Assembly (NCBI GenBank): GCA_005776395.1
Contig: SXPJ01000048.1
Span: forward strand, 24,211 to 88,210
Origin: Bdellovibrionales bacterium
GTDB lineage: Bacteria > Bdellovibrionota > FAC87 > UBA2466
DNA: 64,000 nt
Direction of reading: 5' to 3'
Of this stretch, positions 20,477-44,539 are shown piece by piece; within the stretch, counting starts at the first letter, position 1, and every line of letters starts with the position of its first letter. The notes beneath the pieces were generated by a model. That model was not told the DNA's origin. It did not search any database and saw only the letters and a list, made by a program, of their open reading frames with translations. A program made the position numbers and the translations under genes.

Positions 20477-20513
20477 TGGACGCACCTCCCCACCATCCCC
20501 CCAAGATATGGTT

Positions 20514-21122: not shown

Positions 21123-21124
21123 TT

Positions 21125-23689: not shown

Positions 23690-23758
23690 TCCTGATTTTA
23701 AGTAGTAACGTTTCGCGATAGTTCGGTTCTTTATAAATAACGGCTAGAGGACTAGCCA

Positions 23759-24100
23759 TCACTCGAGGGCTTTGCATAATTTGTAAAGGTGACGAGCGAG
23801 TTTGTCCGTGATTTCATTCAATTCAGCGTTATGAATCTCAAGTAATTGAAGAGCTCCTATACTTTCACGAAAACTGCCAAGAGCAATACGGTAGAATCTT
23901 GCTCTGTCTTTGGGACTGGGTTTAGCCGAGCCACTTCTGCAGATAGGCGAAGGTTCTTCCAGATCGCTTTTGGGAGTCACAGAGAAGTACAAGCCATTAT
24001 TCAACTTGAACCTGATGAATTTAACGAAAAGGAACGAGATACTTTGGACCCTCTAGCTGCCAGCGTCTTCAAACTCTTGCGCAATTGCCTGGCGCCTTGA
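23759..24100. pseudogene. Two overlapping, oppositely oriented C-terminal fragments of four-helix-bundle (PF05635 / Avd-like) genes
   Basis: Minus ORF: ...KDRARFYRIALGSFRESIGALQLL. Plus ORF: ...ADRRRFFQIAFGSHREVQAIIQL...SVFKLLRNCLAP*. Both match the C-terminal half of PF05635 (f.~fL.iA.GS..E). The N-terminal halves are absent. Confidence 0.45.
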
Positions 24101-24150
24101 CCGCAACCCGGTATGCCGGTTTTGCTGCAATGCCGAAATCAGATATCAGC
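24062..24150. repeat. Repeat R1, copy a (inverted copy at 39950..40038, ~90% identity)
   Basis: The reverse complement aligns with 39950..40038. Corresponds to the 3' end of the four-helix-bundle gene plus ~50 nt downstream. Confidence 0.8.
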
Positions 24151-24252
24151 TAGGCGGGGACATACAAATAAAAGAAAGAGCGCGATAGATCTGTGACCCG
24201 TTACAAATAAAAAAGAGCCTAGCTATCAAGCCAACCCCTTTTCAAACTTCTC

Positions 24253-25452
24253 TTAAGGAATATCCATCCTAACTTTTCCAGCAGCAATCGGTTTAGCGGC
24301 AAACTTAACTTTCAACTCATCGGGTCCGTTACATGCCATTTCAGTTGCTTTAGAGAACTTAAAAGCGTTGATATTGTTAACGCAAGCTTCTAATGGCCCT
24401 TCAATAAGCAAAGTACCGTCCGAATTTTCAACGTGAAGCCATACCTCTTCTGCATCAATCACAAGATCTTTAACGCACTCTCCACCTTTAAGAGTAGACC
24501 AGCCTTTTGAAATTACCTGTCCACTGAATTCAGCATCTTTCCAAGCAATAGCAACAAGAATACTATTTTCTTCACTTCGAGAGTTGCAAATGTCCATCAT
24601 TGAACGAGCTACATAAGCTTCATTAGTTTTAAAATGATGCCCATATTCTCCAGAGGTCGGAAGTGCCTCTTTTTGGAAATACTCCATTTTCAATTTATTT
24701 AACGAACAGTCCATAATTTCAGCATCTGGATGATTAAACCCATCATAATCATTGGTGCACAAGGGGACATTACCTCGCCATTTATGAGATCCATTAGATG
24801 AAGTAGCGAAATAGAGAATTTCACTAGCCTCCTCTTTTCGATCTACCTCAAAACATTTTCCAGGTTTAGCCATCAACCAACCATTGACTGTGGTTTTAGC
24901 ATCGCTCGATCTCTTTTGGGCAGACGAAATAAAAATATCTTCCGAGGTATCATTACAAAACTTTACACCCCCTCCTACCTTAGTCGCATCGGAAAGTTTA
25001 AATTCGATCTTAGGAATTTCTTCTCCTGTGGCAGTTCTTAAATTAGCTATTGAAAACTCTTTAAAGGGCCTAATCTCCTGTTCCGATTCATTACAGGAAA
25101 TCGTACCCGCATTCTCTAAGTTATAAATATCGACTGTGTTTATACAAAGCTTGGTCTCACCTAGCCATTGATATATTTTAGAGAATGATTGGGCGTAAAC
25201 TAGAATTTTATCCCCTGATATTGGAAATGACAGCTCTGAGCATTTATTCGGTTCAATTCCCCACCAACCTCGAGCCATTAAATTGGCATTCTCATCTGGC
25301 TTATAAGCTACTGAAATAAATATTTTTCCTTCATCTCTATTGCAAAAATTTATCTTTGTTTCAATGTTAGAGTCTGTTGTTGCAGCCAGTAACAGAGGAG
25401 TATAAAACCCCACACCAAGAAGCGCCAATCCAAAGACAATCTTTTTTTTCAT
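24253..25452 (-). CDS. Exported protein with three Cys-bracketed ~110-aa repeats (DUF1036-like, tentative)
   Basis: Signal peptide MKKKIVFGLALLGVGF. Recurring C..D...IFISVAY....ARGWW.I.P.KC modules. Confidence 0.5.
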   Translation of the reverse strand: MKKKIVFGLALLGVGFYTPLLLAATTDSNIETKINFCNRDEGKIFISVAYKPDENANLMARGWWGIEPNKCSELSFPISGDKILVYAQSFSKIYQWLGETKLCINTVDIYNLENAGTISCNESEQEIRPFKEFSIANLRTATGEEIPKIEFKLSDATKVGGGVKFCNDTSEDIFISSAQKRSSDAKTTVNGWLMAKPGKCFEVDRKEEASEILYFATSSNGSHKWRGNVPLCTNDYDGFNHPDAEIMDCSLNKLKMEYFQKEALPTSGEYGHHFKTNEAYVARSMMDICNSRSEENSILVAIAWKDAEFSGQVISKGWSTLKGGECVKDLVIDAEEVWLHVENSDGTLLIEGPLEACVNNINAFKFSKATEMACNGPDELKVKFAAKPIAAGKVRMDIP

Positions 25453-25571
25453 GGTTAAACTCCCCAATAAAAATAGTTAAAACGACTCTAGAGAGAGGAG
25501 TAAAGCAAGCTGCATGCCATTTGAATTTTATTTTTATAACTGATAAAGAAAGGCTCGATTTTCCACTTCAT

Positions 25572-26066
25572 CTATCGAGAATTATATTTGTCGGCATCCA
25601 CATTAACTGGAACACCAATCCCCTGCCATTTTGTCGTTTGATAGCCCTCATTTCTCTTCTTTTCAGAGGTCACTACCACATCGACGAGAGCGTTAAAATT
25701 AGACTGAGCCGCAAAAAAAGCTAACCTCATAATTATTTCATTTCGGTCATCGCAATTAGTAACCTTAATCGGTTTCTCAGTTCGCCTAATAAGTCGAGTT
25801 TCCTCTCCTTGGCTTTTAGAAAAAATAAAAACCTCTTTAGCCCGCGTCATAACTTCACGATAAGATTCCAGGGCAGGAGCTACCTTTTCATCAAAACAGG
25901 ATCCACAATATTTTCGATAGGAAAGTTCCTTAGGAATTACTTCTAAAAAAGAGAAGCTCTCTTTTTTTAGTTTCTGTATGCAGTTCTTACATTGAATTGC
26001 AAAACAACATTCACACTTTAAAATACCCTTAGGTAATCGACATGATGAACAGACCGAGTTTTCCAT
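25572..26066 (-). CDS. YbjQ/UPF0145-like domain protein with N-terminal Cys-rich zinc ribbon (tentative)
   Basis: CSSC...CECC..CKNC, then a C-terminal region resembling UPF0145 (..AQSNFNALVDVVV..). Confidence 0.4.
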   Translation of the reverse strand: MENSVCSSCRLPKGILKCECCFAIQCKNCIQKLKKESFSFLEVIPKELSYRKYCGSCFDEKVAPALESYREVMTRAKEVFIFSKSQGEETRLIRRTEKPIKVTNCDDRNEIIMRLAFFAAQSNFNALVDVVVTSEKKRNEGYQTTKWQGIGVPVNVDADKYNSR

Positions 26067-26152
26067 GGTGAAGCCAGTACCACAATTAAAACAAACAATG
26101 GAGTCTTTTAATCAAAAAACTCAAAAACCCATCCCAGGCTCACTTTTCTACT

Positions 26153-26566
26153 CTAATTAAACGAAGAAAATCCAGCGCTCGCACTGCAAATAGCCTGTCC
26201 AGAGGGACTTTCTATGCTGATCTTTTGAGTAAATGCCAAAAACTTACGATCCACCAGCCCCTCTGCCTCAACAAATATTTGATTTTCCCCTTTTGGAAAG
26301 CTTTTCTCGACTTTGAAATCTCCCATAACTCCATAAAGCCCAAACTGTGTCAGGCCGTGCAGGAATCCAGTTTTGTTTTTATTCTGATAATTGAGAACAG
26401 CTGTAGTTCCCCCCATCCCAGTCAAAATAAAGTTAGCATTATATTGAGACACCTGAAAAATCTGGTCACAGATCCCACCCGATGAATGAATTTCAGAAAA
26501 CTCTCCGCTATAAATTTGAGAGTAACTCGCAAACGACAAAACTAGAGCAAAGAAAATAACCTTCAT
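26153..26566 (-). CDS. Small exported protein, paralog of 26586..27089
   Basis: Signal peptide from MKVIFFALVL (ATG 26566). The GGICDQ motif parallels DGCGLGWQ in the neighbour. Confidence 0.45.
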   Translation of the reverse strand: MKVIFFALVLSFASYSQIYSGEFSEIHSSGGICDQIFQVSQYNANFILTGMGGTTAVLNYQNKNKTGFLHGLTQFGLYGVMGDFKVEKSFPKGENQIFVEAEGLVDRKFLAFTQKISIESPSGQAICSASAGFSSFN

Positions 26567-26585
26567 AAAACCTCCACAATCTATC

Positions 26586-27089
26586 TTAAACGCCACAAGA
26601 AGCTGATAGTTCAGGATCCTGTGCGATCTGAGTTTTTACATTTTTATACATTTGAACTGCAGAATCGTTCTCTCGAATGATTTCAGAGTATTTAGATTGA
26701 ATCCTACGTCCCAAGGTGACTACATCACTGCAGCCTAGCGCCTGAGCAAATCCAGCTACATACTCCCCTTCCCCTTTTGCTAACTCAATAGATAAATTTT
26801 CTTGGTTAGCAAGTGCAAAGGTAATTCCAGCCTCTTCATTTTTAGCAAAATTGTGTTTATCGCATCCCATAGTTCCAAAGCTCATTCCAAACGAGGGGGG
26901 AAGAAAGGCATTGGTAGTTCCACGAGTTGTGGTAGCTAAAAAACTTTTCTTCTGAGTTATCTGCCAACCTAAACCACAGCCATCAGTTCCTACATCATTC
27001 ATTCCTAGAGTGCTTTTTGCCGCAGCTGCCATGGAGAGGGTTGGGAGTAGAGCTAAAAAACTCACGACTAACGTTAATACGTATTTCAT
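26586..27089 (-). CDS. Small exported protein (DUF3015-like, tentative)
   Basis: Signal peptide. GMNDVGTDGCGLGWQ resembles the N-terminal signature recalled for DUF3015. Confidence 0.45.
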   Translation of the reverse strand: MKYVLTLVVSFLALLPTLSMAAAAKSTLGMNDVGTDGCGLGWQITQKKSFLATTTRGTTNAFLPPSFGMSFGTMGCDKHNFAKNEEAGITFALANQENLSIELAKGEGEYVAGFAQALGCSDVVTLGRRIQSKYSEIIRENDSAVQMYKNVKTQIAQDPELSASCGV

Positions 27090-27197
27090 ATTTATCCTTT
27101 CAGCGATAATAAAACACTTTTACTTCATTCTTAGAATTATAAATAAAAAAAGGGGAAAGTATATTTGAGTTTTATACCATGGTCATTTTACGGAAAA

Positions 27198-29105
27198 TTA
27201 AAAATAATAATTCAGAGAAAATTTTCCTTCATAGAAAGAAGAGTTCTCCTGGGAAGAGATAACTGCCTGAGTCATGAATCTTAATTCCCAGATCTGACTC
27301 AACGCTAACGACTGATTAAGTTGAAACTCAAAGAACTGAGCTCTTCGCTCCCTTTGAAAAAGATCCCATAACCAGCTCGACTGCAGCTGGATTTTATATT
27401 TTTCAAAAAGATAGATAATACTTCCCATTTGCCATTTAGGAATCACACGATATCTCAATCGAAAACTATTTCCGGCCTCTATCTGTGCGACCCCTAAACT
27501 ATAAAATATCGCCTTATTTTTACCCACCCCAATAGCTCCTCCACCTCCCAGATCGAAATGAAAAACCTGGCAGTGATTACAGGAGAGATCTTTCGGAGAC
27601 AATACTTCAAGATGAAATGTCCAAGAAGGATGTTTATCAAGATCGGCCAATGGAGACAGCGAAGTTAGAGACAAAATATGAATATTTTCAAACCTTAACT
27701 GATAACTCTTTAAATAATATCTCAGCGTTACCGCCGGAAAATCAACCTGAGAAAAAGGGGTATATCCCAGATCACTATTTAAAAGATCATGAAACGCAAA
27801 TTTGAATTGAATATCTTGAAAGAATTGGGTCTCAAGGAAAGGGTGTTGCCTATGTTCAACCCCAGAAGACAAGCCCAATCTATACGTGTTATGAGCTAAA
27901 TCGGGACGAGAAGAATCCATAAGATTTCCCATGGAGTCATTTTCTTGATTAGACTTCCCTAGAGTACTGCGCTGAACCAAAACCTGTCTAAAAAGTTTTT
28001 TCTCACTTTCATTTAACTCATTTTCTTTTTTCTTTTTAACGTAAAGAAGATAGTCCGATACTTCATCTAATACTTCTATATCACTGACCTCTTGGGGCGT
28101 TGTCTTATATGCAATAATGTTTTGAAAACTATTTTTTTGAGACCTCTCTAACTTCTCATAATTTCCCATCATCTTTTTTTGCAAAGACGGACGATACTTA
28201 ATATTTTTAATCGCACCCGAAATTGCAGAAACCTTTTTAATAGTTTCCCCCGGAATCACATAAATGGGAAAATCGGTCAATTCCCAATCAGGCTTAGCAA
28301 CTTCAAGAAATGCAAGTAATTGATAGGAACAGTTTTCATCTAAAAAGTAATAGTCAAAAAAACTATTAGTTTCGACCTCCCAAACATTTCTTATAAGTCG
28401 ATAGGTTTCCTCACGATTAAGATTTAACTCATACTCCCAAACATCTCGACTTTCATTGTTCACATATTCATTAACTTTAGCGTAATAGGGAAGGAGTGAA
28501 AATTGTCCTCGATACCCTCCAGTAAGTCCCAAATAGACAAACGCAAACCCATTTTCATCATTCTCTACTTGAGCCGCATAACTAATTCCCCAATCTAAAA
28601 GATCCTGTTTTTTTTGATTCTTCGATTTAGAGTTAATCCGCAAAAAGGTATGCCCAAACATAGATCCTGGGTTGTGGGGATAGGCGCTAGAAAAGACGAG
28701 AGTTACCGATTCAGGGTTAAGCTTATCCAAATACTCATTCAACTTAGAGCATAAGACATCTTTAGTTTTTAGCTTTAAGCCCTCTTTAAGAAAACGATAA
28801 CGTTCTGGAAAGGCACATTGAGGGTGCTGTTTCAATCGTCCCACTTCAATATCTTTTGACATAGCAGCAAGAGTTGCCTGCATTTCTAAGTAAGGATTGC
28901 TCTTACCCTCAGGAGAAAAAAAGAATTCACCTCCCTCAACTCGACTTCGGTACCCTCCCCAAAAACTTTTCTCATAATGAATAAGCCTCAGCCAATAAGG
29001 AGATTTGGCTAAAGTCTCTAATTCAGATTCAGGGGATAAGGTTCCAGTCAAAGAGGATTGAATACCGATCCCAATTAATATCAAGAGAATAAAATGCAAT
29101 CTCAC
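27198..29105 (-). CDS. DUF4105 domain-containing exported protein
   Basis: LAKSPYWLRLIHYEKSFWGGYRSRVEGGEFFFSPEGKSNPYLEMQATLAAM matches the DUF4105 core (WlrLlHY...FFls..G...P..El.Atl.a). Confidence 0.55.
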   Translation of the reverse strand: MRLHFILLILIGIGIQSSLTGTLSPESELETLAKSPYWLRLIHYEKSFWGGYRSRVEGGEFFFSPEGKSNPYLEMQATLAAMSKDIEVGRLKQHPQCAFPERYRFLKEGLKLKTKDVLCSKLNEYLDKLNPESVTLVFSSAYPHNPGSMFGHTFLRINSKSKNQKKQDLLDWGISYAAQVENDENGFAFVYLGLTGGYRGQFSLLPYYAKVNEYVNNESRDVWEYELNLNREETYRLIRNVWEVETNSFFDYYFLDENCSYQLLAFLEVAKPDWELTDFPIYVIPGETIKKVSAISGAIKNIKYRPSLQKKMMGNYEKLERSQKNSFQNIIAYKTTPQEVSDIEVLDEVSDYLLYVKKKKENELNESEKKLFRQVLVQRSTLGKSNQENDSMGNLMDSSRPDLAHNTYRLGLSSGVEHRQHPFLETQFFQDIQFKFAFHDLLNSDLGYTPFSQVDFPAVTLRYYLKSYQLRFENIHILSLTSLSPLADLDKHPSWTFHLEVLSPKDLSCNHCQVFHFDLGGGGAIGVGKNKAIFYSLGVAQIEAGNSFRLRYRVIPKWQMGSIIYLFEKYKIQLQSSWLWDLFQRERRAQFFEFQLNQSLALSQIWELRFMTQAVISSQENSSFYEGKFSLNYYF

Positions 29106-29148
29106 AAGAGAGCAATACTAGTTTTAGACTTTTAATAAAACAAAAAAA

Positions 29149-29469
29149 TCAGGGGACCGAATCTAAGATCTCTAAACTTGAACTTTCAACTCTTAGTTTT
29201 ATCGACTTGCCATGGGTTTCAGCCTCTTTTAGATGGCTTTCTAGGACTTTAAATCTGGGATTATTAGATTTTAAATAATAGATTCCCGCGTGTTTTTTAA
29301 AAGTAATTTGATATCCCTCATTATGAGTCATTACAGATCTCACTGAATCCATAAGTTCTAAAAACTTTTTTTCTGACATGACGCTTTTTTCAGGCTTAGA
29401 ATTCTTAAAAGCTAAGCCCTCTCCAAAAAAATTGGCACCTATTAATAAAATGAGTGCCACAATTCTCAT
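29149..29469 (-). CDS. Small exported protein co-transcribed with the protein glutaminase (possible partner/inhibitor; inference)
   Basis: Signal peptide. The start overlaps the upstream stop by 4 nt. Confidence 0.4.
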   Translation of the reverse strand: MRIVALILLIGANFFGEGLAFKNSKPEKSVMSEKKFLELMDSVRSVMTHNEGYQITFKKHAGIYYLKSNNPRFKVLESHLKEAETHGKSIKLRVESSSLEILDSVP

Positions 29470-30263
29470 TTCTTTTCCTTAATTCGCTCTAACTGAATCT
29501 GTAAATAGCTCTGCAGAGTTTGTTTTGTATCTGTGATGTCTTGTGATTGATAACTATCTAGCTCCTCTTTTTTAGCACCTGGAAGATAGTTATACCTCTT
29601 AGTGTGGTAGATCTCATCTATCTTCCCATTTTTATGAGAGGTCTGTAATTTAACCCATTCATCTATAGTGACTGGTTTTTTAAATAACGAAGGATCAATC
29701 ACATACAGGATCGTTTTACCCTCTTTTTTCACAGCTACGAATGGCGCTACATGATACCACCACTCGACAAAGCCTTTCGGGGCATTTGTGGTTTCAACTC
29801 TAAGATCTCCCTCTAAAAACACCTTGCCTGTTACTACCCCCTTTTTCTCCATTAGTTGGGTCATTTCATGGGCTCTCGCATAGCATCCATCCTCTGGATA
29901 ACAAAATGGAATATGTTTTTGCTCTGCCATCTCTTGAAATAATTTATTAAGTTGATCTTCGGTTAGTAGACTTACTTTAAAAACCTTTCCAGAGGGGGAA
30001 GAAATCTTGTGGGTTTTAGAATTGATTAAAAGAGTAAAGATCCCTTTTTTTATGGCCTCTTTGAGGATCATTAGAGAGGGGGATAAATTCTTTAATTCAA
30101 TAGCTATGGGCCTAGCTTTATTCGTTTCTGGATTAATGGGTGGGTCCACTCGAGCTGAAATGTGGTCATCTGCTGCTGTTAAAATTGAACTCAATGTTAC
30201 AAAAAGAACTAAAAAATACCGCACTCGCATCTCTCCTGTTTTTTGATAAATATGACGCCTCAT
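29466..30263 (-). CDS. Protein-glutamine glutaminase (protein glutaminase family, Cys-His-Asp papain-like)
   Basis: FCYPEDGCYARAHEM...WWYHVAPFV...ILYVIDPSLFKKPVT closely parallels the Chryseobacterium protein glutaminase core (YPVDGCYARAHKM...WSYHVAILV...RIIDPSLFSSGPVT). Signal peptide present. Confidence 0.7.
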   Translation of the reverse strand: MRRHIYQKTGEMRVRYFLVLFVTLSSILTAADDHISARVDPPINPETNKARPIAIELKNLSPSLMILKEAIKKGIFTLLINSKTHKISSPSGKVFKVSLLTEDQLNKLFQEMAEQKHIPFCYPEDGCYARAHEMTQLMEKKGVVTGKVFLEGDLRVETTNAPKGFVEWWYHVAPFVAVKKEGKTILYVIDPSLFKKPVTIDEWVKLQTSHKNGKIDEIYHTKRYNYLPGAKKEELDSYQSQDITDTKQTLQSYLQIQLERIKEKK

Positions 30264-30475
30264 ACCGTCACAGTGTATTCCTCTTAGCCACTCTTCCTAC
30301 TGCAACTTAGCCTTACGGCCAGTTGCACACCGCCAGAGTGCAAGGACAGTGCTAGACGCTTTGTTTCTTAATCCTAAACTTGATTTGATTATTGCGACCT
30401 GCGAATTGCCTCATTTACGCTCTAAGTGTTACACTTAAAGGGTCTTCACTAACTCTTTAAAAAAACGATAACTTC

Positions 30476-31540: not shown

Positions 31541-31559
31541 AAAAGCAAAAAGGGATCTT

Positions 31560-33406: not shown

Positions 33407-33464
33407 TTTGACCTTTTTATACTTATTTACTCAAGAACACCTCTCCCATTCCGATAAACTAGAT

Positions 33465-34223: not shown

Positions 34224-34309
34224 TACCTAATCTCAGTTTGGGTAAGCTTATTCGGCGCGGCGTGGCGCACCTGCTGCGCTAACCCTCTCACCTATTTATT
34301 AGAGATCCT

Positions 34310-34368
34310 AGATCTCCATCACAAAAACCCCATTGCGAGAGGTGGAGAGTATAGCCTTAGTAATATTG
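34310..34368. repeat. Repeat R2, copy a (direct copy at 44258..44316, ~80% identity)
   Basis: agatctccatcacaaaaaccccattgcgagaggtggagagtatagccttagtaatatt versus agatctccagcacaaaaaaaccattgcgaatggtggcgagcataggcttagcaatatt. Confidence 0.75.
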
Positions 34369-34480
34369 CGACGCTACGCATCAGCCCCTATCTTACTTTC
34401 TTGAAATCCCCTCAAGTGTCCCCTATCATGCCGTCTATCTTAAACGGGTATCTGTTTTTTACTGAAAGAGAGTCATTACG

Positions 34481-35254: not shown

Positions 35255-35284
35255 TTATTTAATTAGGGGTCGAGAACTTACAAA

Positions 35285-38200: not shown

Positions 38201-38839
38201 AAAGAGACGATCGGATTTTTCGTCTCTGGCCATCCTCTTGACGATTTTTCTGAGGAACTTGAATGTTACACCACCACCTCTATCTCAGACTGTTTAACCT
38301 CTACGAGTTCTAAAGAGGTCTTTGTAGGCGTTGAAATAGTCTCTTCAAGAGAAATTATTACAAAACGCGGAGACCGAATGGCGTTTCTAACCCTCGAGGA
38401 CAAAACAGGACAGATTGATACTGTGGCCTTCTCAGATATCTATTTAGAGAACGAAACCCTCTTAAAAGCGGGAGAACCCATTTGGGTTAAAGGCCAAGTA
38501 GAGATCAATGAAGGTGGAGCTAAGCTAATTCTATCCAAAAAAGGGCACGCTAAAATCTTGCCTTTGCGTCATGCTTACGAGGCTATGGCTAAAGAGATTC
38601 ATCTCCACTTTGCAGTTGAAGAAAAAACCAATCTAAACCCTCAGACTTTAAACAAACTTCAAAACTATCTTAAAGCTATCGCTGATAAGAATGGATCTCC
38701 TCTATTTTTACATTTAAAAACCTCTAAACGCTCTGAAGCAGTGCTTCGTATGAAAGAGACTATTCCTCTTAATCGAGACACGATAAGCTTTATTAAAAAT
38801 ATTCTCCAAGAAGAAAGGATTCGACTTGAATTTAGGTAA
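35285..38839 (+). CDS. dnaE: DNA polymerase III alpha subunit
   Basis: FTHLHVHSNYSLLDS PHP domain, GPGRGSGAGSLVAY, LPDFDVDF, FNKSHAAAYS. 1184 aa. Confidence 0.95.
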   Translation: MAAEFTHLHVHSNYSLLDSTIRIEDLVKTASNDKMAALALTDHGNMFGALDFYLYAKKYGLKPILGCEVYLAPGNRFLRGNNTSGDEEVAPYSTSRSGMNHLILLVQNEIGYQNLCKLVSSGFLEGFYYKPRIDKDILKEHCEGLIATSACLKGEVSNLCLLGDMDRAREAAIFYRNLFKGNFYLELQQNGIPQQMLVNQRFQELSKELGIPLIATADCHYLTQKEAFAQEVLLAIQTGRTLEDPSAQNIASDEFYFKPQAVMKEEFSYCPEAINNTMAIAEKCTFEFKFDDEKGKKIYHFPKFDPPDGKTAEQFIIDSAKAGLDRILSEKEQIEGKKLTSEQRKKYDDRLEKELNVITSMGFIGYFLIVSDFIGYAKDHGVPVGPGRGSGAGSLVAYCLRITELDPLEHGLLFERFLNPERISLPDFDVDFCMDKRDQIIKYVVDKYGKECVAQIITYGKLQARGVIRDVGRAFGMPVSEVDKIAKLVPETVNITLDKAFEQESRLRDLTANDPKLHHLFSVCRSLEGLARHASIHAAGIVISNRPMVEHCPLYRGKNDELVIQFDMKKAEEIGLIKFDFLGLKTLTFLQSAERLVNNRYPENEFRLSHLDLANKKMYEMLSKGDTFGIFQLESSGMQDLLKKARPDCFADIVAIISLYRPGPMVMLDDFIGRKHGTIPIQYEFEELRPILQETYGIMVYQEQVQQIAMKLASYTAGGADLLRRAMGKKKPEEMAKQKTVFLEGAAKNNHDPIKAEKLFDLMANFAGYGFNKSHAAAYSVITCQTAFLKAHYPVEFYATLLSTERENTDKITKYIADAKRHHIDVLPPDINESDTDFTVLTESQIRFGLGAIKGVGQIAIDSVLEARKKGGPFTDLFDLCARGNTRTVNKRVLEAFVKAGALDSFKIHRASLFKAIDEALQMGSALQKTKDDLQPSFSDLLGPEEDSSFTHRKVSYPHETPWPRLYELKLEKETIGFFVSGHPLDDFSEELECYTTTSISDCLTSTSSKEVFVGVEIVSSREIITKRGDRMAFLTLEDKTGQIDTVAFSDIYLENETLLKAGEPIWVKGQVEINEGGAKLILSKKGHAKILPLRHAYEAMAKEIHLHFAVEEKTNLNPQTLNKLQNYLKAIADKNGSPLFLHLKTSKRSEAVLRMKETIPLNRDTISFIKNILQEERIRLEFR

Positions 38840-39947
38840 ACTGATTTTTTACAGTCTATTTTTCGTGAAACTTCTTTTTGCTGAAGGAGTTCCTTTTAAA
38901 GTTTCCTCCTCATCTCTTAATACGGCCCCCACAACCGCAGGGCAATCGATTGAAAATGGAGATCCAGAATCCACCCTTATTGATGAGCTGAAATATCTGG
39001 CAGTATCTAATTGGCTTCAAGACTACTTAAGTCAACGCTACAATCAGTTCGATAAATATGTAACCCCAGAATTCGCAGAAAAATATATTTTAGACTACAA
39101 AGTTTCTCGTACTGGAACCCCTTCAGGAGGGCTAGATCTCATAGGCCACTTAGATGGAGAGGCCCTTAAAAAATGGGTTCGTCTGGTTGATTCGAAATCG
39201 AAAGCTTCAAATCAAATCAAACCGCTATTTATCATTTCATCCCAGTTACCCGGATTAAGTATCTCACCTGGGGAGACAGCCCATAAGCTTAGAGACTCTT
39301 CTACAGCTCAGTTGCTATCTCAAATGACTCAGCAGCAACTTAATAAACTAAATGCCCATTTGAGCCCACTAGAAAGCTCTTTAAGTATAGAATCTCCGCC
39401 CAAGAACAGCTCTGAAATTCAAAGTCTTACATCACTAGCAAGAGAGCGAGGTCAGAGCCTAGTATTATGGGAATCCTTCTCTACCTGTCCCGGCTGTACC
39501 AATCCTAGATTCGACATCTTTTTGTATAATACACAAACTCAAAATATCTCTTTTGTCGTTGGAGATGACTTAGCTCTCTCTATGAAAGATTTAACAAACA
39601 CAGAACTCTTAAAGAGATCCCTTCTTCCCATTTTTCAGCAGTTTCAATCTGAACTGGAAAAAACCTTCTCCGAAGGATCCCTACAAGAAACCCCTTTCAA
39701 ACTCATTCTTGAAAATGTCGATTCCTATCGAGCTTTAAAAACTGCAGAAGCTGAACTCAGCCGTGGTAACGGTTTTAGCAGCCCCATTTTCAAAAGGGTT
39801 GGAAAAAAAACAGCCGAGTATGAAGTTAAATCTTCCCTTTCCATCGAGGAACTCGCCGTAAGAGTACAATCGACCGTACTGCCTGGTTTTAAAACCGAGG
39901 TTTCTAAAGTCGATAGTTCAACTTTAGTTGTGAGATATTCCAAATGA
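38826..39947 (+). CDS. Exported hypothetical protein
   Basis: Signal peptide. No recognisable domain. Overlaps the dnaE stop by 14 nt. Confidence 0.5.
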   Translation: MNLGKLIFYSLFFVKLLFAEGVPFKVSSSSLNTAPTTAGQSIENGDPESTLIDELKYLAVSNWLQDYLSQRYNQFDKYVTPEFAEKYILDYKVSRTGTPSGGLDLIGHLDGEALKKWVRLVDSKSKASNQIKPLFIISSQLPGLSISPGETAHKLRDSSTAQLLSQMTQQQLNKLNAHLSPLESSLSIESPPKNSSEIQSLTSLARERGQSLVLWESFSTCPGCTNPRFDIFLYNTQTQNISFVVGDDLALSMKDLTNTELLKRSLLPIFQQFQSELEKTFSEGSLQETPFKLILENVDSYRALKTAEAELSRGNGFSSPIFKRVGKKTAEYEVKSSLSIEELAVRVQSTVLPGFKTEVSKVDSSTLVVRYSK

Positions 39948-39949
39948 AT

Positions 39950-40096
39950 GCTGATTTCTGATTTCGGCATTGCGGCAACCGGCACACCGAGTTGCGGTCA
40001 AGGCACCCGGTAATTGCGCAAGAGTTTGAAGACGCTGACGTTTCCCGTATGCACCACCGCTGAATCGATTCCCGCATGGCCATTGCTGCAGCCCTA
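39950..40096 (-). pseudogene. Repeat R1 copy b with a 33-codon C-terminal remnant of a four-helix-bundle gene
   Basis: Minus-strand ...GIDSAVVHTGNVSVFKLLRNYRVP* parallels ...LDPLAASVFKLLRNCLAP* at 24100. 39950..40038 aligns with the reverse complement of 24062..24150. Confidence 0.5.
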
Positions 40097-40163
40097 GAAT
40101 CATGAGATACTTTACTAGTTAGCCTTTCTAATCTTTAACCACTTCCTAAAATAAAATATCGCT

Positions 40164-41147
40164 ATGCAATACACTCAATTTTTGTCCCTTGTTTTAGCCT
40201 TAAGTCTTCTCACTCAATGTGCGGGGCTCAACCCCTTTGGCTCCGACTCAACTGAAAAAATAGAGTCTGAAGATAAAGGCCAAGCCGAAAATTCTAATAG
40301 TCCTCCAAGGTATACCTGGGAAATAAATGAATCTTTAAAAAATTCTCTTAAGAAAAAAATTGTGGTTTTAAACTTCCACAACAAGACCCAATTCGGCGGA
40401 AAAGAGCTGGGAGAGTATGCGGCTAGTACCGTTCAAGACACCATTTCAAAAATGCCCGAATTTGTCATCGTAACCCAAGAGGAGATCAACCCTGACGAAG
40501 CCATTATTTTTGAGGATGGCAAATACAACATGAAACAGGTTTTTGAAAGGGCTCGCGCTCGAGGGGTTTCGGCTGTGGTGATGGGTTCAATCGATGATGT
40601 TAAGATTCAAGAAAAAGGGGATGAGATTGGTTTGTTCCGAACTCGCTACCACTCGGTCACTGCAAAAATTAAGTTCCAACTTCATGACGCCACTAATGAA
40701 AAGATCTTAGTTTCCAAAGATTCTACCGCAGAAGTTATTGAGGAACACACTCGATTTCTAGCTAGCCGTACGATTGAAAGCTATGATGCCTCTCGAGCCG
40801 AAGGAGCTGTCTCAAAAGCTATTAATAAAGTCCTTCCCCTCTTCTCTCAGTACGCTAAAAGAATCTCGTGGGTAGGTAAAATTGTAAAAATCGAAATGAA
40901 CCGTTTCTTTATTAATGCCGGAGAGCCTACTGGAATCACCCAAGGACAGCTTCTTAAGGTATTTGGCTCGAGTGAACCTATTATTGATGATGAATCTCAA
41001 CAATTACTCGGAATGGCCCCCGGACGTTTCAAAGGTATTTTGAAAGTAGTAGACTACTTTGGAAATGATGGAGCTGTCGCCATTGTTCACGCCGGTGCAG
41101 GTTTTCAGGAAAAAGACAGAGTTGAAATCTACAGCCCTCCGCACTAA
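40164..41147 (+). CDS. Lipoprotein (CsgG/LpoB-like fold suggested; tentative)
   Basis: Lipobox LLTQC. KKIVVLNFHNKTQ...VQDTISKMPEFVIVTQEEIN resembles the iAVl.F.N.t ... R..l..il.E pattern. Confidence 0.45.
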   Translation: MQYTQFLSLVLALSLLTQCAGLNPFGSDSTEKIESEDKGQAENSNSPPRYTWEINESLKNSLKKKIVVLNFHNKTQFGGKELGEYAASTVQDTISKMPEFVIVTQEEINPDEAIIFEDGKYNMKQVFERARARGVSAVVMGSIDDVKIQEKGDEIGLFRTRYHSVTAKIKFQLHDATNEKILVSKDSTAEVIEEHTRFLASRTIESYDASRAEGAVSKAINKVLPLFSQYAKRISWVGKIVKIEMNRFFINAGEPTGITQGQLLKVFGSSEPIIDDESQQLLGMAPGRFKGILKVVDYFGNDGAVAIVHAGAGFQEKDRVEIYSPPH

Positions 41148-41184
41148 AAGTATTCCACTCTAGCTCCTCTTTACAACTCATGTT

Positions 41185-41856
41185 ATGAGAATTCTCATGA
41201 CGTGGAATTTTATCTTTCACCAAAATATCTCTTGGGATGATTTAGAGGCTAAACAGCAAGAGCTCATTCAACAGGTCCAAAGTCATAAAAACGAGGCCTA
41301 CCTTCTCATCTCAGAGCCCTCTCCTACTTTTACTTACGGTCGAAATTCTAATCCTCAGGAGCTTTTGTGGTCGAAATCGGAGCTTAAAAACAAGCAAGTT
41401 CAAGTGGCTTCAGTAACCCGAGGTGGAAAATGGACCTACCATGGCCCTGGACAGATCTTAATTTATCCGATTCTTCATTTACCTAGCTGGGGATATTCCT
41501 CCAAGTCGGTCCGAGCCTTTCTCGAAGATTTTAGGACGGCGATTCGAGAGGCCTTAGAAAAATTGGGTTGTAAAAACCTGCAACCTCAAGAGCCTTTTGG
41601 TCTCTATATCGACAATAAAAAACTAGTGTCATTTGGACTGGCCTTTGAAAGAACCATCTCCTCTCATGGAATGGCTCTTTATTACAGTGACCAATCTCAG
41701 TTTTTTTCTGGAATCACTCCCTGTGGAGTCACTCACGGTAGCACGACCGATTTAAAAGAAAAACTCCCTCAAGAAACCTCATGGAACTCCGTGGCAAACA
41801 TTGTCGCAGAGGCCATAAAAAATAGTTTAAGTTTAAGATTAACTCAGGTACTCTAA
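41185..41856 (+). CDS. lipB: Octanoyltransferase (lipoate-protein ligase B)
   Basis: RGGKWTYHGPGQILIYPILHL matches the LipB core RGG.vTYHGPGQ.v.Y. Confidence 0.85.
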   Translation: MRILMTWNFIFHQNISWDDLEAKQQELIQQVQSHKNEAYLLISEPSPTFTYGRNSNPQELLWSKSELKNKQVQVASVTRGGKWTYHGPGQILIYPILHLPSWGYSSKSVRAFLEDFRTAIREALEKLGCKNLQPQEPFGLYIDNKKLVSFGLAFERTISSHGMALYYSDQSQFFSGITPCGVTHGSTTDLKEKLPQETSWNSVANIVAEAIKNSLSLRLTQVL

Positions 41857-41895
41857 GCCCTGCATTTTAATGCCTTTTATTTTTAGGAGACATAC

Positions 41896-42975
41896 ATGTT
41901 AAAACAAAACTGTAGTGAAAATTCACTCAAAATTAATAACAAAGGCAATATCACTATTTACTCTTTATGTGGGGTAGTCGGTATTGTCGTCGGTATTTTA
42001 GCAGGAATGGCCTTTTCAGGCGGGATGGGATCTTCAGGTGAGAATCCTGTCATTGCCGAATACAATGGAAAATCGGTTCGTTCCTCGGAAGTTTTCACCC
42101 AAGTTAAAACAAGATTATTCGAACTTGAAGAAGAGGTTTATCGTACTAAAGAACAGGCCATCAGAGAGTTTGTCGAACAGAGACTTTTGGATGATGAGGC
42201 CAAAAAAGCCAATCTGAAGATTGAAGAGCTTCTTGATAAACAGGCCGGGGGGGCTGTTGCAGAGGTCGCCGATAAAGATATCGAAGCCTTTTTAGCTTCG
42301 AAGGGATTAAGCTTAAAAGATCCCCGAATCAAAAAAGATGATGTTCGAGAATACTTAAAATACCGTCAGAAATTTGAAAAACGACAAGGTTATGTTGAAA
42401 AACTTCGCGAAAGTGCGAAGCTCAAGATTCTTATTAAAGAACCTGAATCTCCAAAATTAACCGTGAGTACGGACGGGCATCCTTCATGGGGAAATGCTAA
42501 AGCCCCTGTCACAGTGGTCGAATTCTCTGACTTCCAATGTCCGTTCTGCTCAAGAGCGGTACCTGTTATCGACCGCATCAAGAAAGAATTTGGACCAGAG
42601 AAGGTTCGCATTGTATTCCGCGATATGCCTCTACCTAATCACAACCGAGCTCTTCCAGCTAGCTTAGCGGCTCGTTGTGCTAATGAGCAGGGTAAATTCT
42701 GGGAAATGCACAATGCTTTGTTTGAAAATCAACAGAAGTTAGAAGACAAAGACTTGAAAGAATATGCCAAAACAGTTGGATTGGATTTACCTAAGTTCAA
42801 TGATTGCTTCGACAATAAAAAGTATGTGGCCGATCTTGAAAAAAGCCGATCCGAAGCTGAGAAGGTTGGAATTACTGCAACTCCTTCTTTCTTAATTAAC
42901 GGAGTTCTATTGCAAGGCGCTCAACCCTTTGAAAAATTCAAAGAAAAAATTGATCGCGCTGCTAAACAGGGCTAA
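41896..42975 (+). CDS. DsbA-family thiol:disulfide oxidoreductase with N-terminal membrane anchor
   Basis: FSDFQCPFCSRAVP (CxxC thioredoxin active site), TPSFLINGVLLQGAQP. Confidence 0.75.
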   Translation: MLKQNCSENSLKINNKGNITIYSLCGVVGIVVGILAGMAFSGGMGSSGENPVIAEYNGKSVRSSEVFTQVKTRLFELEEEVYRTKEQAIREFVEQRLLDDEAKKANLKIEELLDKQAGGAVAEVADKDIEAFLASKGLSLKDPRIKKDDVREYLKYRQKFEKRQGYVEKLRESAKLKILIKEPESPKLTVSTDGHPSWGNAKAPVTVVEFSDFQCPFCSRAVPVIDRIKKEFGPEKVRIVFRDMPLPNHNRALPASLAARCANEQGKFWEMHNALFENQQKLEDKDLKEYAKTVGLDLPKFNDCFDNKKYVADLEKSRSEAEKVGITATPSFLINGVLLQGAQPFEKFKEKIDRAAKQG

Positions 42976-42991
42976 GTCTTAAAAAATTAAA

Positions 42992-43028
42992 AGGCCTGCT
43001 TACTCTTCAGTAAGCAGGCCTTTTTTTA
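42992..43028. terminator. Bidirectional rho-independent terminator
   Basis: GGCCTGCTTACT-CTTC-AGTAAGCAGGCC perfect 12-bp stem followed by TTTTTTTAT. Confidence 0.65.
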
Positions 43029-43072
43029 TGCCTAAAATAACCTCATCCGTATTTCACACAAACTGCTTTACA

Positions 43073-43834
43073 CTACTCACATACCCTACCACCTGCGATT
43101 GCAGTAACCATTCTCATCACACCGGCGTTATGGCGCATTGTTCTAACTGTATGGCAACCATTCATAATGGCAGGTATTTGGCATTCCAAAGGGAAATTTA
43201 GAACGGGGTCCATTGATATCAAGCCTATCCTGAACATCGTGCTCGTCGCCTCATTAGAATCTCGAATCGCTTCTTGAGCTTCTTGACCCCCTTGAGTTAA
43301 TAGACCCCTAAAGCCGTTCTGCAATCCGGCATTTACAATCCTCGTTATTCCACCTACCGCTCTTTCGCGGGGATTCAGAAAAGATTTCTTGGCCCCACCT
43401 AAACTCGTGGAAAAACTCAAGTTCATACTGCCCACAGCCGGAACAGTCCCGCCCCCGAGAGAAACCCCCAACTTAGAAGAATCGCAACCTGTCAAAATAT
43501 CGCCAATTTTTTTGAACACCTGCGAGTAGACTGTGGCGTGCGCCTTTGCCACAGGCGTTGCATTGATATCATTCTTAATCGTATCAAGTCTTCTTACGAG
43601 AGTATTAATCAATGCTCTGGAATCGACCGGCTGTGGAGCGAGAGCGTTGACTGGCATCTGAACCCTGGCGACCTCTCTTATCGTATGGAGGGCTAAATTA
43701 GCTGTAACGTTTGCCCCCTCAAAAAGTGACCTGGTCAGATCAAAAAGGGATTGGACGGCGGCAACCTGCCCTGGCTGACGATTGCCTCCCAGGACATCCT
43801 GTACGACATTCCTAATGAAGTTGATTCTATCCAC
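43073..43834 (-). CDS. Hypothetical protein, GC-rich (~50%), no signal peptide, no recognisable domain
   Basis: 253-aa ORF, compositionally distinct from its neighbours. Confidence 0.5.
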   Translation of the reverse strand: MDRINFIRNVVQDVLGGNRQPGQVAAVQSLFDLTRSLFEGANVTANLALHTIREVARVQMPVNALAPQPVDSRALINTLVRRLDTIKNDINATPVAKAHATVYSQVFKKIGDILTGCDSSKLGVSLGGGTVPAVGSMNLSFSTSLGGAKKSFLNPRERAVGGITRIVNAGLQNGFRGLLTQGGQEAQEAIRDSNEATSTMFRIGLISMDPVLNFPLECQIPAIMNGCHTVRTMRHNAGVMRMVTAIAGGRVCE

Positions 43835-43917
43835 ATCTTGCCCAAAGGCCGGCAGCGCTCCCGCCCTAAGAATGATAAAATTGAACGGCCAATTCGTAAC
43901 ATCACCACCAAGATTTA

Positions 43918-43982
43918 TTTTCTTTCCTTTAAAAAATTAGTTTCCGCCCTTGGTGAAAACTAATTTTTTAAAGGAAAGAAAA
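43918..43982. promoter_or_regulatory. Perfect 23-bp inverted repeat with 19-nt spacer (operator-like palindrome)
   Basis: ttttctttcctttaaaaaattag - 19 nt - ctaattttttaaaggaaagaaaa, in a divergent promoter region. Confidence 0.5.
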
Positions 43983-44131
43983 TGAATGATTTTAGAACTT
44001 ACGAATTAGCCGTTCAATTTTATCGCTTGGTTTCGAAATTTAAAGTGCCCTGTCATCTGAAGGGGCAATTGCAATGGGCCGCTTCAAACGAGTTCTTAAA
44101 AAAGATTCACTCTCCTTATCCGAATTAACAC
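43982..44131 (+). pseudogene. N-terminal fragment (49 codons) of a four-helix-bundle (PF05635 / Avd-like) gene
   Basis: MNDFRTYELAVQFYRLVSKFKVPCHLKGQLQWAASNEFL... follows the PF05635 N-terminal helix pair (QlrRAa.SI.NIAEG region), then stops. Confidence 0.45.
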
Positions 44132-44257
44132 AGTCAACGCAACACTAAGAAAATAGAAAAGGGCTAACAAAAGGTCCATAATTCTATCCCTAACGACCAA
44201 GCTAGGAGTGAATAATGGGATACCTTAGGCTAACCCATGTCAGAATAAAAGAGGGTT

Positions 44258-44316
44258 AGATCTCCAGCACAAAAAAACCATTGCGAATGGTGGCGAGCAT
44301 AGGCTTAGCAATATTA
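44258..44316. repeat. Repeat R2, copy b
   Basis: See 34310..34368. One frame encodes RMVASIGLAIL, a degenerate RAAvSIPlNIAEG-like peptide. Confidence 0.7.
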
Positions 44317-44539
44317 CAACCCTCTGCCGACAACATCACAGACTCCTTCATCAAAAAATATTTTAGCAGAGGGAGAACCCGATACAAAAATTATGACCGA
44401 TTTGAAGAGGGGCACCGACTCTAAAAAAACAGGGGCCGTAGCTTTGCGAAGAAAACGTAGGACTGACAAGCCGTTACACAACTATTTATGAACTGAAATC
44501 AATTGGCGAGTCAGGAACTCAATCCTGCACTTTTAAGAG

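Follow-up and report, generated by a model that had tools for sequence, protein, structure and literature searches.

Relics of a palindromic two-gene PF05635 cassette, probably a non-autonomous mobile element of Bdellovibrionota

Introduction

Mobile insertion cassettes (MICs) and bacterial MITEs are non-autonomous elements that carry the inverted termini of insertion sequences and are moved in trans; MIC231 of Bacillus cereus is an example. A transposon origin of 23S rRNA intervening sequences (IVSs) is a long-standing proposal. In the Coxiella IVS, tandem heptamer repeats (GACAGAT) adjoin the ORF (PMC4990558). PF05635 genes are common beside the reverse transcriptases of diversity-generating retroelements (DGRs), and Avd acts as a cofactor of the reverse transcriptase (PMC10053308).

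We analysed a stretch of 64,000 nt from a Bdellovibrionales bacterium (the window), in which an earlier note had reported a dispersed, genome-specific repeat family of PF05635 gene fragments. We consider it likely that the window holds three decayed copies (relics 1–3) of a small transposable cassette, non-autonomous and of MITE or MIC type, which is widespread in Bdellovibrionota, moved in trans and eroded by palindrome-driven deletion. The cassette, common among Bdellovibrio-like predators, has apparently not yet been described.

Results

Anatomy of the intact cassette

The repeated unit turned out not to be a set of dispersed gene fragments. It is a defined palindromic cassette of ~0.77–1.0 kb with two head-to-head genes for ~100-aa PF05635 proteins (Avd/23S-rRNA-IVS-protein-like), and every intact unit holds these two genes and no other. 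The order is an imperfect terminal inverted repeat, a tail with a hairpin, the leftward gene, a near-perfect palindrome of 60–130 nt containing both ribosome-binding sites and start codons, the rightward paralogue, a hairpin, a 7-nt-periodic tail and the second terminal repeat. Target-site duplications of 10 bp lie outside both ends. A small hairpin and the periodic tail follow each gene; across the family (tails of 120 genes), autocorrelation peaked at lags 7 and 14. Locus L005 has a decayed A gene, the palindrome and an intact B gene, head to head, and L048 and L050 are near-perfect re-palindromised units. In RNA folding, the spacers of 31 of 35 intact pairs formed a single hairpin (median dG −50.7 vs −14.0 for shuffles), the architecture also seen in relic 3.

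Both PF05635 genes are functional in intact copies: their proteins score 53–63 bits (PF05635 cut-off: 33.8) and the median dN/dS of 23 close copy pairs was 0.09, i.e. strong purifying selection on both genes. In most pairs of copies from one genome, dN/dS was 0.00–0.25. A pure passenger gene would not usually be under purifying selection in every copy, and this selection also fits a self-mobilising element.

Three relics in the window

The features are listed in Table 1. Fragment mapping placed relic 1 (23725–24181) at positions 1–232 and 580–787 of the L005 unit, relic 2 at 35–106 and relic 3 (43874–44089) at 313–556.

Table 1. Coordinates of cassette relics and of the R2 repeats in the window
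Feature	Position	Strand	Sequence and evidence
Relic 1, left target-site duplication	23715..23724	.	GCGATAGTTC; directly outside terminus; 9/10 vs 24182-24191
Relic 1, B-side terminal inverted repeat	23725..23743	+	GGTTCTTTATAAATAACGG; sole window match; also in L005, L006, L088, L089
Relic 1, small GC hairpin directly 3' of B-type stop codon	23742..23757	-	GGCTAGAGGACTAGCC; read from sequence
Relic 1, C-terminal half of B-type PF05635 gene	23759..23935	-	...GSAKPSPKDRARFYRIALGSFRES...KLARHLYKLCKALE, stop; subfamily HMM positions 42-100, E 3e-18
Relic 1, deletion junction	23927..23932	+	6-bp CGAGCC common to both half-genes
Relic 1, C-terminal half of A-type PF05635 gene	23915..24100	+	...RATSADRRRFFQIAFGSHREVQAIIQLEPDEFNE...LAASVFKLLRNCLAP, stop; subfamily HMM positions 42-100, E 4e-25
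R1a, last 12 codons of A-type gene and its tail	24061..24150	+	Repeat comparison
Relic 1, non-coding tail 3' of A-type gene	24101..24163	+	CCGCAACCCGGTATGCCGG...AATGCCGAAATCAGATATCAGC..., roughly 7-nt periodic
Relic 1, A-side terminal inverted repeat	24164..24181	-	GCTCTTTCTTTTATTTGT (read inward); sole window match
Relic 1, right target-site duplication	24182..24191	.	GCGATAGATC
R2a, putative HNH nuclease gene relic	34260..34376	+	...CCANPL...LDLHHKNPIARGGEYSLSNIATL; Pfam HNH E 2e-3, 18.5 bits (cut-off 21.4)
Relic 2 (R1b), last 12 codons of A-type gene and about 50 nt of tail	39950..40037	-	SVFKLLRNYRVP, stop
Relic 3 left, first ~12 codons of A-type gene, start codon lost	43874..43911	-	CYELAVQFYHS, stop; 96.7% over 30 nt to L006 A gene
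Relic 3 centre, palindromic spacer with both ribosome-binding sites	43913..43987	.	36-nt arms, 92% complementary
Relic 3 right, first ~35 codons of B-type gene	43982..44089	+	MNDFRTYELAVQFYRLVSKFKVPCHLKGQLQWAAS...; subfamily HMM positions 2-35, E 5e-13
R2b, putative HNH nuclease gene relic	44229..44363	+	ANPCQNKRGLDLQHKKTIANGGEHRLSNITTLCRQHHRLLHQKIF, stop; Pfam HNH E 7e-4; weaker HNH_2, HNH_5

The C-terminal halves reported earlier at 23759–24100 were recovered as two, on opposite strands (23762–23935, minus; 23915–24091, plus). Matches to Pfam, TIGR02436 and the subfamily HMM confirmed that the fragments derive from PF05635 (Avd-like) genes. The B-type half (PF05635 E 4.6e-4, TIGR02436 E 3e-5) was 92.8% identical in nucleotides to the intact gene P0006 in L005. 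The A-type half (PF05635 E 7.3e-4, TIGR02436 E 6e-4) was 92.7–92.9% identical to P0003 in L006, which is near-full-length, with the first 4 codons lost. The half-genes overlap at 23915–23935 and both start at subfamily HMM position 42; relative to L005, about 330–350 bp of the centre is missing. In the full-length copies (L005, L006), the two arms carry CGAGCC, or nearly this sequence, at mirror positions. The centre may have been lost by slippage between these 6-bp repeats, which would have removed codons 1–41 of both genes.

Outside the genes, the GC hairpin of relic 1 is kept in L005 and L088, and the deletion junction of L006 falls in its loop. The A-type tail is kept in L005, L006, L008, L162, L186 and L206. 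The A-side terminus is identical in L005, L006, L088, L162, L186 and L206, with related versions in L008 and L040/L043.

The R1 copies had been described as inverted and ~90% identical, and this held: the arms (24061–24121 and 39977–40037) are inverted and 92% identical over 61 nt, and with a gap allowed 24061–24150 and 39950–40037 are 90% identical over 90 nt (BLAST E 8e-30). The fragments map onto the cassette; R1 therefore corresponds to the A-type gene's 3' end with its tail. The proposed search for A-specific variation gave differences of all types between the R1 copies; as these are not adenine-specific, the copies are not DGR template/variable repeat (TR/VR) pairs. Relic 2 matched the L006 A gene (nhmmer E 1e-17), is cut off on both sides and is without a terminus. 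Sequence past 40037–40042 is not homologous. What remained of a claimed 33-codon remnant at 39998–40096 was the last 12 codons and about 50 nt downstream; the rest is not homologous. Relic 2 may represent one 3' end and tail, retained alone.

Similarly, the N-terminal fragment given as 43982–44131 was upheld for about its first 35 codons (43988–44089). The earlier note had missed a ~12-codon N-terminal piece of the partner gene, on the opposite strand, and the palindrome that separates the two. This spacer is homologous to that of L005 and folds with −40.5 kcal/mol (z −10.6). Relic 3 may have retained the centre alone. A chimeric query of its N-terminal fragment and the A half matched 13 full-length ~100-aa PF05635 proteins with coverage of up to 98%.

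Termini and target-site duplications

Two loci have perfect duplications at both ends (10/10): ACTTGGTGCG flanks L006 and TCGAAATCGG flanks L008. Relic 1, L054 and L068 reach 9/10. The two copies L040 and L043, which share a genome assembly but not their flanks, have partial duplications; no clear duplication was seen at L005. The duplicated sequence differs between loci. The terminal repeats, short and imperfect, adjoin only these cassette units in all DNA fetched. Similarity between copies has sharp, common boundaries: it ends at the B-side terminus of relic 1, and identity between the window and L088, from another sample, stops exactly there. The inverted termini and 10-bp duplications agree with the earlier suggestion of mobile-element relics. 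An automated test for duplications and inverted termini was positive in 8 of 29 loci vs 1–4 in permuted controls. As this is weakly above the controls, the evidence for duplication rests on a few clear cases in one clade.

Neither the window nor ~700 kb of related loci nor 119 metagenome matches to the terminal 18-mer yielded a transposase with matching termini. A search for an empty orthologous site found none.

Distribution and neighbours

The family is not specific to one genome, as had been supposed. We found the cassette, in several copies per genome, in about 46 metagenome-assembled genomes, of which nearly all are labelled Bdellovibrionota. The 82 related loci comprised 41 divergent pairs, 20 single genes and 21 at contig ends, the site of many copies. 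The copies are dispersed between unrelated housekeeping genes: the 363 flanking ORFs did not cluster with one another, and the 129 immediate neighbours matched 140 Pfam families, mostly housekeeping, with at most three members per family. The 25 most frequent of these families, as listed, included no reverse transcriptase or transposase family. The cassette was absent from the viral contigs searched, and there is no rRNA in the window.

The R2 repeats

R2 is a real repeat (34309–34375 vs 44257–44323: 82%, E 1e-13), as had been reported; its supposed PF05635 origin was rejected. Translation gave LDLHHKNPIARGGEYSLSNIATL and LDLQHKKTIANGGEHRLSNITTLCRQHH, which score against HNH nuclease profiles instead, both under the curated cut-off, and no HNH relic lies beside the cassette at other loci. 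From its sequence, R2 appears to be two dead HNH nuclease genes that are separate from, and unrelated to, the PF05635 cassette. R2b lies ~140 nt from relic 3 and matches the NCBIfam IscB HNH region (E 7e-4). A profile from both copies matched the H-N-H motif of colicin E9/E7; as in the colicin E7/E9 DNase and IscB HNH domains, (D/E)LHH..PI..GGE....NI..LC..HH aligns with the H-N-H core. Unlike these domains, both copies lack a start codon (none before 34401 in the R2a frame). Nine of the 14 differences between the copies are at third codon positions. A search for a close intact homologue found none.

Discussion

The cassette would insert by a cut-and-paste or copy-in reaction with a 10-bp staggered cut, made by a transposase acting in trans and encoded elsewhere in the genome. 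Being long palindromes, the inserted copies would subsequently erode.

Alternatively, the cassette could be autonomous: the PF05635 proteins, perhaps as a hetero-oligomeric ring, would move or copy the unit via the central palindrome, the heptamer arrays or the termini. A separate transposase would be unnecessary, and the rRNA IVSs that carry a PF05635 ORF would be related elements of this kind. We regard this as unlikely, though it has points in its favour. Intact units hold PF05635 genes only, no partner transposase was found, and the low dN/dS within genomes agrees with a spread restricted to units whose proteins work. The re-palindromised units L048 and L050 fit as well, as do the heptamers beside the Coxiella ORF. 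On the other hand, four-helix-bundle proteins of ~100 aa are not known to cut or join DNA, no catalytic motif was identified, and duplications of a fixed 10 bp together with inverted termini are the hallmark of DDE-type transposases. The sole characterised role in the family, that of Avd, is as a reverse transcriptase cofactor (PMC10053308). The idea of the IVS ORF as a mobility component is old; PMC4990558 attributes it to Ralph & McClelland 1993.

It is improbable that R1 was kept as a functional non-coding element (terminator, small RNA or protein-binding array), so that the 3' end and tail of the A gene persist. The tail is the piece most often retained among relics (R1b, L186, L206 and the second L006 fragment), and its 7-nt periodicity is common family-wide. 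However, the consensus fold is an 8-bp hairpin only, without compensatory change, no Rfam family matched, scans of the reference copies L005 and L008 found no terminator-like site, and R1b is cut at arbitrary points at both ends.

Even less probable is an origin as ordinary members of a host gene family that decay and owe their spread to segmental duplication and recombination, without transposition. The window copies are fragments, with a complete pair of termini in relic 1 only, and L088 suggests recombination between copies. Against this stand the sharp common boundaries, the flanking 10-bp direct repeats of unrelated sequence and the differing, unrelated flanking genes.

That Avd genes remain from a DGR which lost its reverse transcriptase is hardly credible: PF05635 is the Avd-like family common beside DGR reverse transcriptases (PMC10053308), but the genes form head-to-head pairs and not an Avd-TR-RT order, the R1 differences are of all types, and, consistent with the earlier report of no reverse transcriptase or TR/VR pair, there was no reverse transcriptase in the annotated 30–51 kb part of the window or among the listed Pfam matches of the 129 immediate neighbours.

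We return to the non-autonomous cassette. With MICs and MITEs it shares the short inverted termini, duplicated target sites of fixed length, the lack of an internal transposase, many dispersed intergenic copies per genome and frequent truncated relics; passenger genes are shared with MICs. It differs in its invariable cargo of two PF05635 paralogues, arranged as a head-to-head palindrome and under strong purifying selection, and in its long central hairpin and heptamer-periodic tails; an insertion sequence with matching termini that could be the parent was not found.

The 23S rRNA IVSs with a PF05635 ORF ('S23p'; Coxiella, Leptospira and others) encode the same protein family and are likewise small selfish elements (about 0.4–0.8 kb) with inverted ends. 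In contrast, the cassette lies between protein-coding genes and not in rRNA helices, has two divergent genes instead of one and has clear target-site duplications. Its ORFs are conserved, whereas the Coxiella IVS ORF is decaying.

The DGR accessory protein Avd (PDB 4DWL) and XCC0516 (PDB 2GSC) represent a four-helix-bundle fold family homologous to the cassette proteins (subfamily profile vs 2GSC: E 1.8e-8). Unlike Avd in DGRs, these come without a reverse transcriptase, template/variable repeats or adenine-specific variation. The paired palindromic gene arrangement is a feature of the cassette and not of DGRs.

Gene fragments in the window

The repeat R1 was confirmed as a real inverted repeat. 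Its arms are 92% complementary, and with one small gap allowed the copies extend to 90 nt at 90% identity (E 8e-30). R1 consists of the 3' end of one gene type (A) and the tail behind it. The earlier note had placed C-terminal PF05635 halves at 23759–24100. These are present: the region contains two of them on opposite strands, diverging from ~23925. The minus-strand ORF ends in ...GSAKPSPKDRARFYRIALGSFRES...KLARHLYKLCKALE and the plus-strand ORF in ...RATSADRRRFFQIAFGSHREVQAIIQLEPDEFNE...LAASVFKLLRNCLAP, each followed by the stop. The matches to PF05635 had E-values of 4.6e-4 (minus) and 7.3e-4 (plus), and those to TIGR02436 had E-values of 3e-5 (minus) and 6e-4 (plus). The window fragments scored 20.8 and 20.2 bits against a PF05635 cut-off of 33.8 because they are too short alone; intact cassette genes pass this cut-off with 53–63 bits. 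For TIGR02436 (cut-off 24), the B half reached 24.1 bits and the A half 19.9 bits.

We joined the N-terminal fragment at 43982 to the plus-strand half and used it as a query. Thirteen proteins of ~100 aa were found, matching at up to 68% identity with 98% query coverage, and all 13 of these closest homologues carried a precomputed PF05635 annotation. Their alignment separated two types, named A and B. A subfamily profile built from them matched three window pieces (E 4e-25, 3e-18 and 5e-13) and nothing else in the whole 64 kb. It also matched the sequence of 2GSC (E 1.8e-8), a four-helix-bundle protein which, like 4DWL, forms a pentameric ring. The N-terminal fragment was correctly recognised for its first ~35 codons, which are B-gene codons in relic 3 (profile E 5e-13). 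The supposed 33-codon remnant at 39998–40096 was overstated: relic 2 consists of 12 codons plus the tail, and the remainder is not homologous.

Coordinates of the repeats, relics, duplications and neighbouring features
Feature	Sequence	Position	Details
Relic 1	window	23725–24181	positions 1–232 + 580–787 of the L005 unit
Relic 2	window	39950–40037	positions 35–106 of the L005 unit
Relic 3	window	43874–44089	positions 313–556 of the L005 unit
R1 copies	window	24061–24150, 39950–40037
R1 arms	window	24061–24121, 39977–40037	inverted
R2 copies	window	34309–34375, 44257–44323
Target-site duplication	window	23715–23724, 24182–24191	GCGATAGTTC / GCGATAGATC, 9/10
Target-site duplication	L006		ACTTGGTGCG on both sides, 10/10
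Target-site duplication	L008		TCGAAATCGG on both sides, 10/10
Target-site duplication	L054, L068		9/10 each
Target-site duplication	L040, L043		partial; flanks differ
Target-site duplication	L005		none clear
Degenerate ~7-nt arrays	L036	6350–6450
Degenerate ~7-nt arrays	L024	5450–5600
Degenerate ~7-nt arrays	L017	5480–5620
Degenerate ~7-nt arrays	window	24101–24150
Palindromic unit	L048	5540–6387
Palindromic unit	L050	350–1305
Tandem duplication in P0006	L005	10001–10060	9 codons, N terminus
Y1-transposase-like gene	L005	16231–16782	PF01797
Stretch shared with L088	window	26422–23725
Equivalent of window 23725	L088	2688–2706
MNT–HEPN pair	window	22840–23689	toxin-antitoxin-like
Inverted repeat	window	1699–1820, 3218–3339	122 nt, 97% complementary
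ORF ending in left arm	window	593–1816	407 aa
ORF between arms	window	2136–3122	328 aa
ACCAAAAGGTA-type motif repeats	window	20428–20481, 21051–21123	right copy: ~70-nt hairpin
ORF between motif repeats	window	20514–20981, minus	155 aa

Structure of the intact cassette

An intact B-type protein (P0006) is encoded on L005, another contig of the same sample. Immediately upstream, on the opposite strand, lies a decayed A-type gene, and a perfect palindrome between the two genes contains both ribosome-binding sites. Divergent pairs made up 41 of the 82 loci compared; 20 had a single gene and 21 lay at a contig end. In 31 of the 35 pairs examined, a single hairpin takes up 70% or more of the spacer. 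The median folding energy was -50.7 kcal/mol, compared with -14.0 kcal/mol for shuffles. The spacer sequence varies between elements, and the symmetry is kept.

A small GC hairpin follows each stop codon, and behind it comes a tail of degenerate ~7-nt units. At lags 7 and 14, tail autocorrelation rose to 0.34 and 0.30, respectively (~0.25 elsewhere). Lag 7 scored best for 52 of 120 tails versus 8 of 114 controls. Such arrays were seen behind PF05635 genes family-wide. The tail consensus RNA structure is an 8-bp hairpin with no covariation. Scans for sigma-70 promoters and terminators in two reference units gave nothing exceeding the shuffled expectation. The two tails within a unit do not follow a direct-repeat rule: 13 pairs were direct, 9 inverted and 9 unclear.

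The contents of the cassette are two PF05635 genes only. The median dN/dS was 0.09 over 23 close copy pairs, many of them from one genome; therefore, the cassette proteins are functional. Partner identity within a unit was 46–71% in 30 of 32 units and 93–94% in two, which shows occasional re-palindromisation. A division of the whole family into an ancient A clade and an ancient B clade was not supported: partners mostly fell in the same broad cluster, and two units are recent inverted duplications.

The entire units at L048 and L050 are near-perfect palindromes, with partner proteins 93–94% identical in both. The L048 unit is 88.7% self-complementary over 848 nt. These units are the result of a recent inverted duplication or of arm-to-arm conversion within the family. 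On L005, the P0006 gene has a short tandem duplication, and a Y1-transposase-like gene lies 6 kb from it.

Termini and target-site duplications

The terminal inverted repeats in the window, read inward, are GGTTCTTTATAAATAACGG and GCTCTTTCTTTTATTTGT; they are short and imperfect. In the window's clade, the B-side terminus reads GGTTCTTT(A/C)TAAATAACGG and the A-side terminus GCTCTTTCTTTTATTTGT. Each terminus occurs once in the window, and elsewhere in the fetched DNA it was found only beside cassette units. Related termini were present in L005, L006, L008 and L040/L043. The last two are two copies from one assembly with common termini AGGCTCTCCCTC...GAGGGAGATTC. Similarity between copies ends at common points.

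The termini are immediately flanked by 10-bp direct repeats that vary in sequence between loci. Homology had fixed the termini independently of these repeats, so two perfect 10-mers at the exact ends cannot be due to chance. Such repeats are the mark of transposition in which the target is cut with a 10-bp stagger. An automated test for duplications and inverted termini over 29 loci was only weakly positive (8 loci versus 1–4 in permutations), owing to short termini that carry InDels. Hence, the insertion claim is solid for the window's clade and extrapolated to the remaining family.

A parent insertion sequence with matching termini was not found in the DNA examined. The terminal 18-mer had more than 119 matches in metagenomes; among the matches listed, four were true cassette ends and none flanked a transposase. 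No empty site was found in same-population contigs reached via the flanking DUF1036 and HEPN proteins: one of these contigs diverges at the cassette terminus, and another ends within the relic. A 22-nt empty-site pattern had no match in metagenomes.

L088, from another sample, is 99.7% identical to the window up to the B-side terminus of relic 1 and unrelated exactly past it. This breakpoint reflects either recombination of two cassette copies or an assembly that is chimeric at the repeat.

Decay of the window copies

Both genes of relic 1 start at profile position 42. They meet at a 6-bp CGAGCC, which encodes Arg-Ala in the A-gene frame and, on the opposite strand, Gly-Ser in the B-gene frame. 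Full-length copies carry CGAGCC or a near-identical hexamer at mirror positions of both arms. The likeliest event would be slippage across the base of the palindrome hairpin, by which the centre of relic 1 may have been lost. Since relic 1 retains both termini and the duplication, the deletion either arose at this site or was already present in a copy that transposed.

Relic 3 contains the spacer with ~12 A-gene codons beside the B-gene codons. Its spacer has 36-nt arms (-40.5 kcal/mol, z -10.6). An origin of relic 3 as the piece excised from relic 1 was rejected: its identity to L005 is 75%, compared with 83–93% for relic 1. Similar end-only relics were seen in two related metagenome contigs (L186 and L206). 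In L006, the entire B gene is deleted, and the junction lies in the B-hairpin loop.

R2 and other repeats

R2 is also a real repeat, with copies 82% identical over 67 nt. It had been taken for degenerate PF05635 copies; however, its best Pfam match is an HNH nuclease. The two translations matched Pfam HNH with E-values of 7e-4 and 2e-3 (20.2 and 18.5 bits, below the cut-off of 21.4), and the match to the IscB HNH region had an E-value of 7e-4. A profile of both copies against the PDB placed the colicin E9/E7 DNases on top (E 0.04). Nine of the 14 differences are at third codon positions (binomial P ~0.02), which indicates that the copies diverged as coding sequence. The start codon is missing from both copies, and the protein collection held no intact or close homologue.

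A composite PF05635–HNH element was rejected because no HNH relic lay beside the cassette at other loci (local tblastn). R2 appears to represent dead genes of a family of their own, and nothing indicates that its position close to relic 3 is more than a coincidence.

Two other repeat pairs were observed in the window. The left arm of the 122-nt inverted repeat forms the last ~40 codons of an ORF with no family match, and the ORF enclosed by the arms has no Pfam or NCBIfam match. This region may be invertible, or it may be an insertion element not recognised as such. The ACCAAAAGGTA-type repeats bracket an ORF with no family match.

Distribution and neighbours

A scan with the family alignment over one genome per species gave 300 confirmed stretches, which refutes the idea of a genome-specific repeat family. 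The best 80 of the 300 came from ~46 metagenome-assembled genomes with up to six loci per assembly, and nearly all were labelled Bdellovibrionales, Oligoflexia, Silvanigrellales or Bacteriovoracaceae. The window's organism thus very probably belongs to Bdellovibrionota. A few close family members (L014, L069 and L085) carry Actinomycetes or Candidatus Dadabacteria labels, through either mis-binning or transfer. The contig of the protein P0008 is L162. An exact 22-mer of R1 had no match in the species-representative genomes, and the source organism is without a close relative among them. The family was absent from viral contigs and had no match to PADLOC and PHROGs models.

The 363 ORFs flanking units showed no clustering among them and no recurrent neighbour family. 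The 129 immediate neighbours matched 140 Pfam families, each at most three times, and included Hsp70, aconitase, CTP synthase, tRNA synthetases and ribosome recycling factor. Neither reverse transcriptase nor transposase families were among the 25 most frequent neighbour Pfam families listed. In the window, an MNT nucleotidyltransferase and HEPN pair is followed, after 26 nt, by relic 1's left duplication.

Interpretation and comparison with known systems

The description that fits the window fragments best is that of relics from a mobile and apparently undescribed cassette family. The earlier note's observation was confirmed in part, and its interpretation was supported in part: an origin from mobile elements agrees with the inverted termini and 10-bp duplications, which are clear in the window's clade. 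The cassette family explains three recurrent features of Bdellovibrionota assemblies: broken contigs, orphan tails and short fragments annotated as 'four helix bundle protein'.

We know of no function for PF05635 outside the Avd branch. The family is very large: 10,284 cluster representatives match the subfamily profile at E ≤1e-3. With the Bdellovibrionota cassettes, two questions can be addressed in a concrete system: whether PF05635 proteins work for a selfish element, and by what that element is moved. The cassettes form well-delimited units that show inverted termini and target-site duplications, they are present in many copies within a genome, and their proteins are under strong selection. 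It is conceivable, though we consider it improbable, that a distinct class of small palindromic selfish elements uses PF05635 proteins specifically for mobility or maintenance, with the central hairpin and the heptamer arrays as their sites of action. Such a class would join the Bdellovibrionota cassettes with the ORF-bearing rRNA intervening sequences (IVSs), and Avd would be a branch recruited by retroelements.

A full-text search of the available literature found eight papers naming the family, and those listed gave no description of such a cassette or of any Bdellovibrio MITE; a 2024 preprint still lists the PF05635 domain as functionally uncharacterised. MITEs and mobile insertion cassettes share terminal inverted repeats, duplications of fixed length and variable sequence, dispersed copies and the lack of an internal transposase with the cassette described here. 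The difference is in the cargo, which is constant, paired and selected in the cassette.

ORF-bearing 23S rRNA IVSs have the protein family, small size, inverted ends and adjacent heptamer repeats in common with the cassette. The Coxiella IVS carries tandem GACAGAT heptamers beside its PF05635 ORF, and unproven transposon hypotheses for such ORFs date from the 1990s (PMC4990558). However, these IVSs sit in 23S rRNA helices and are excised from the rRNA, whereas the cassette units lie between protein-coding genes; the window has no rRNA genes.

A diversity-generating retroelement (DGR) is contradicted by both features tested, as the earlier note had held: no reverse transcriptase occurs among those 25 families of the 129 neighbours or in the annotated part of the window, and the R1 copies differ by all substitution types, not at adenines only as a template and variable repeat pair would. 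What the cassette has in common with Avd, the DGR accessory protein, is the protein fold family only (PMC10053308).
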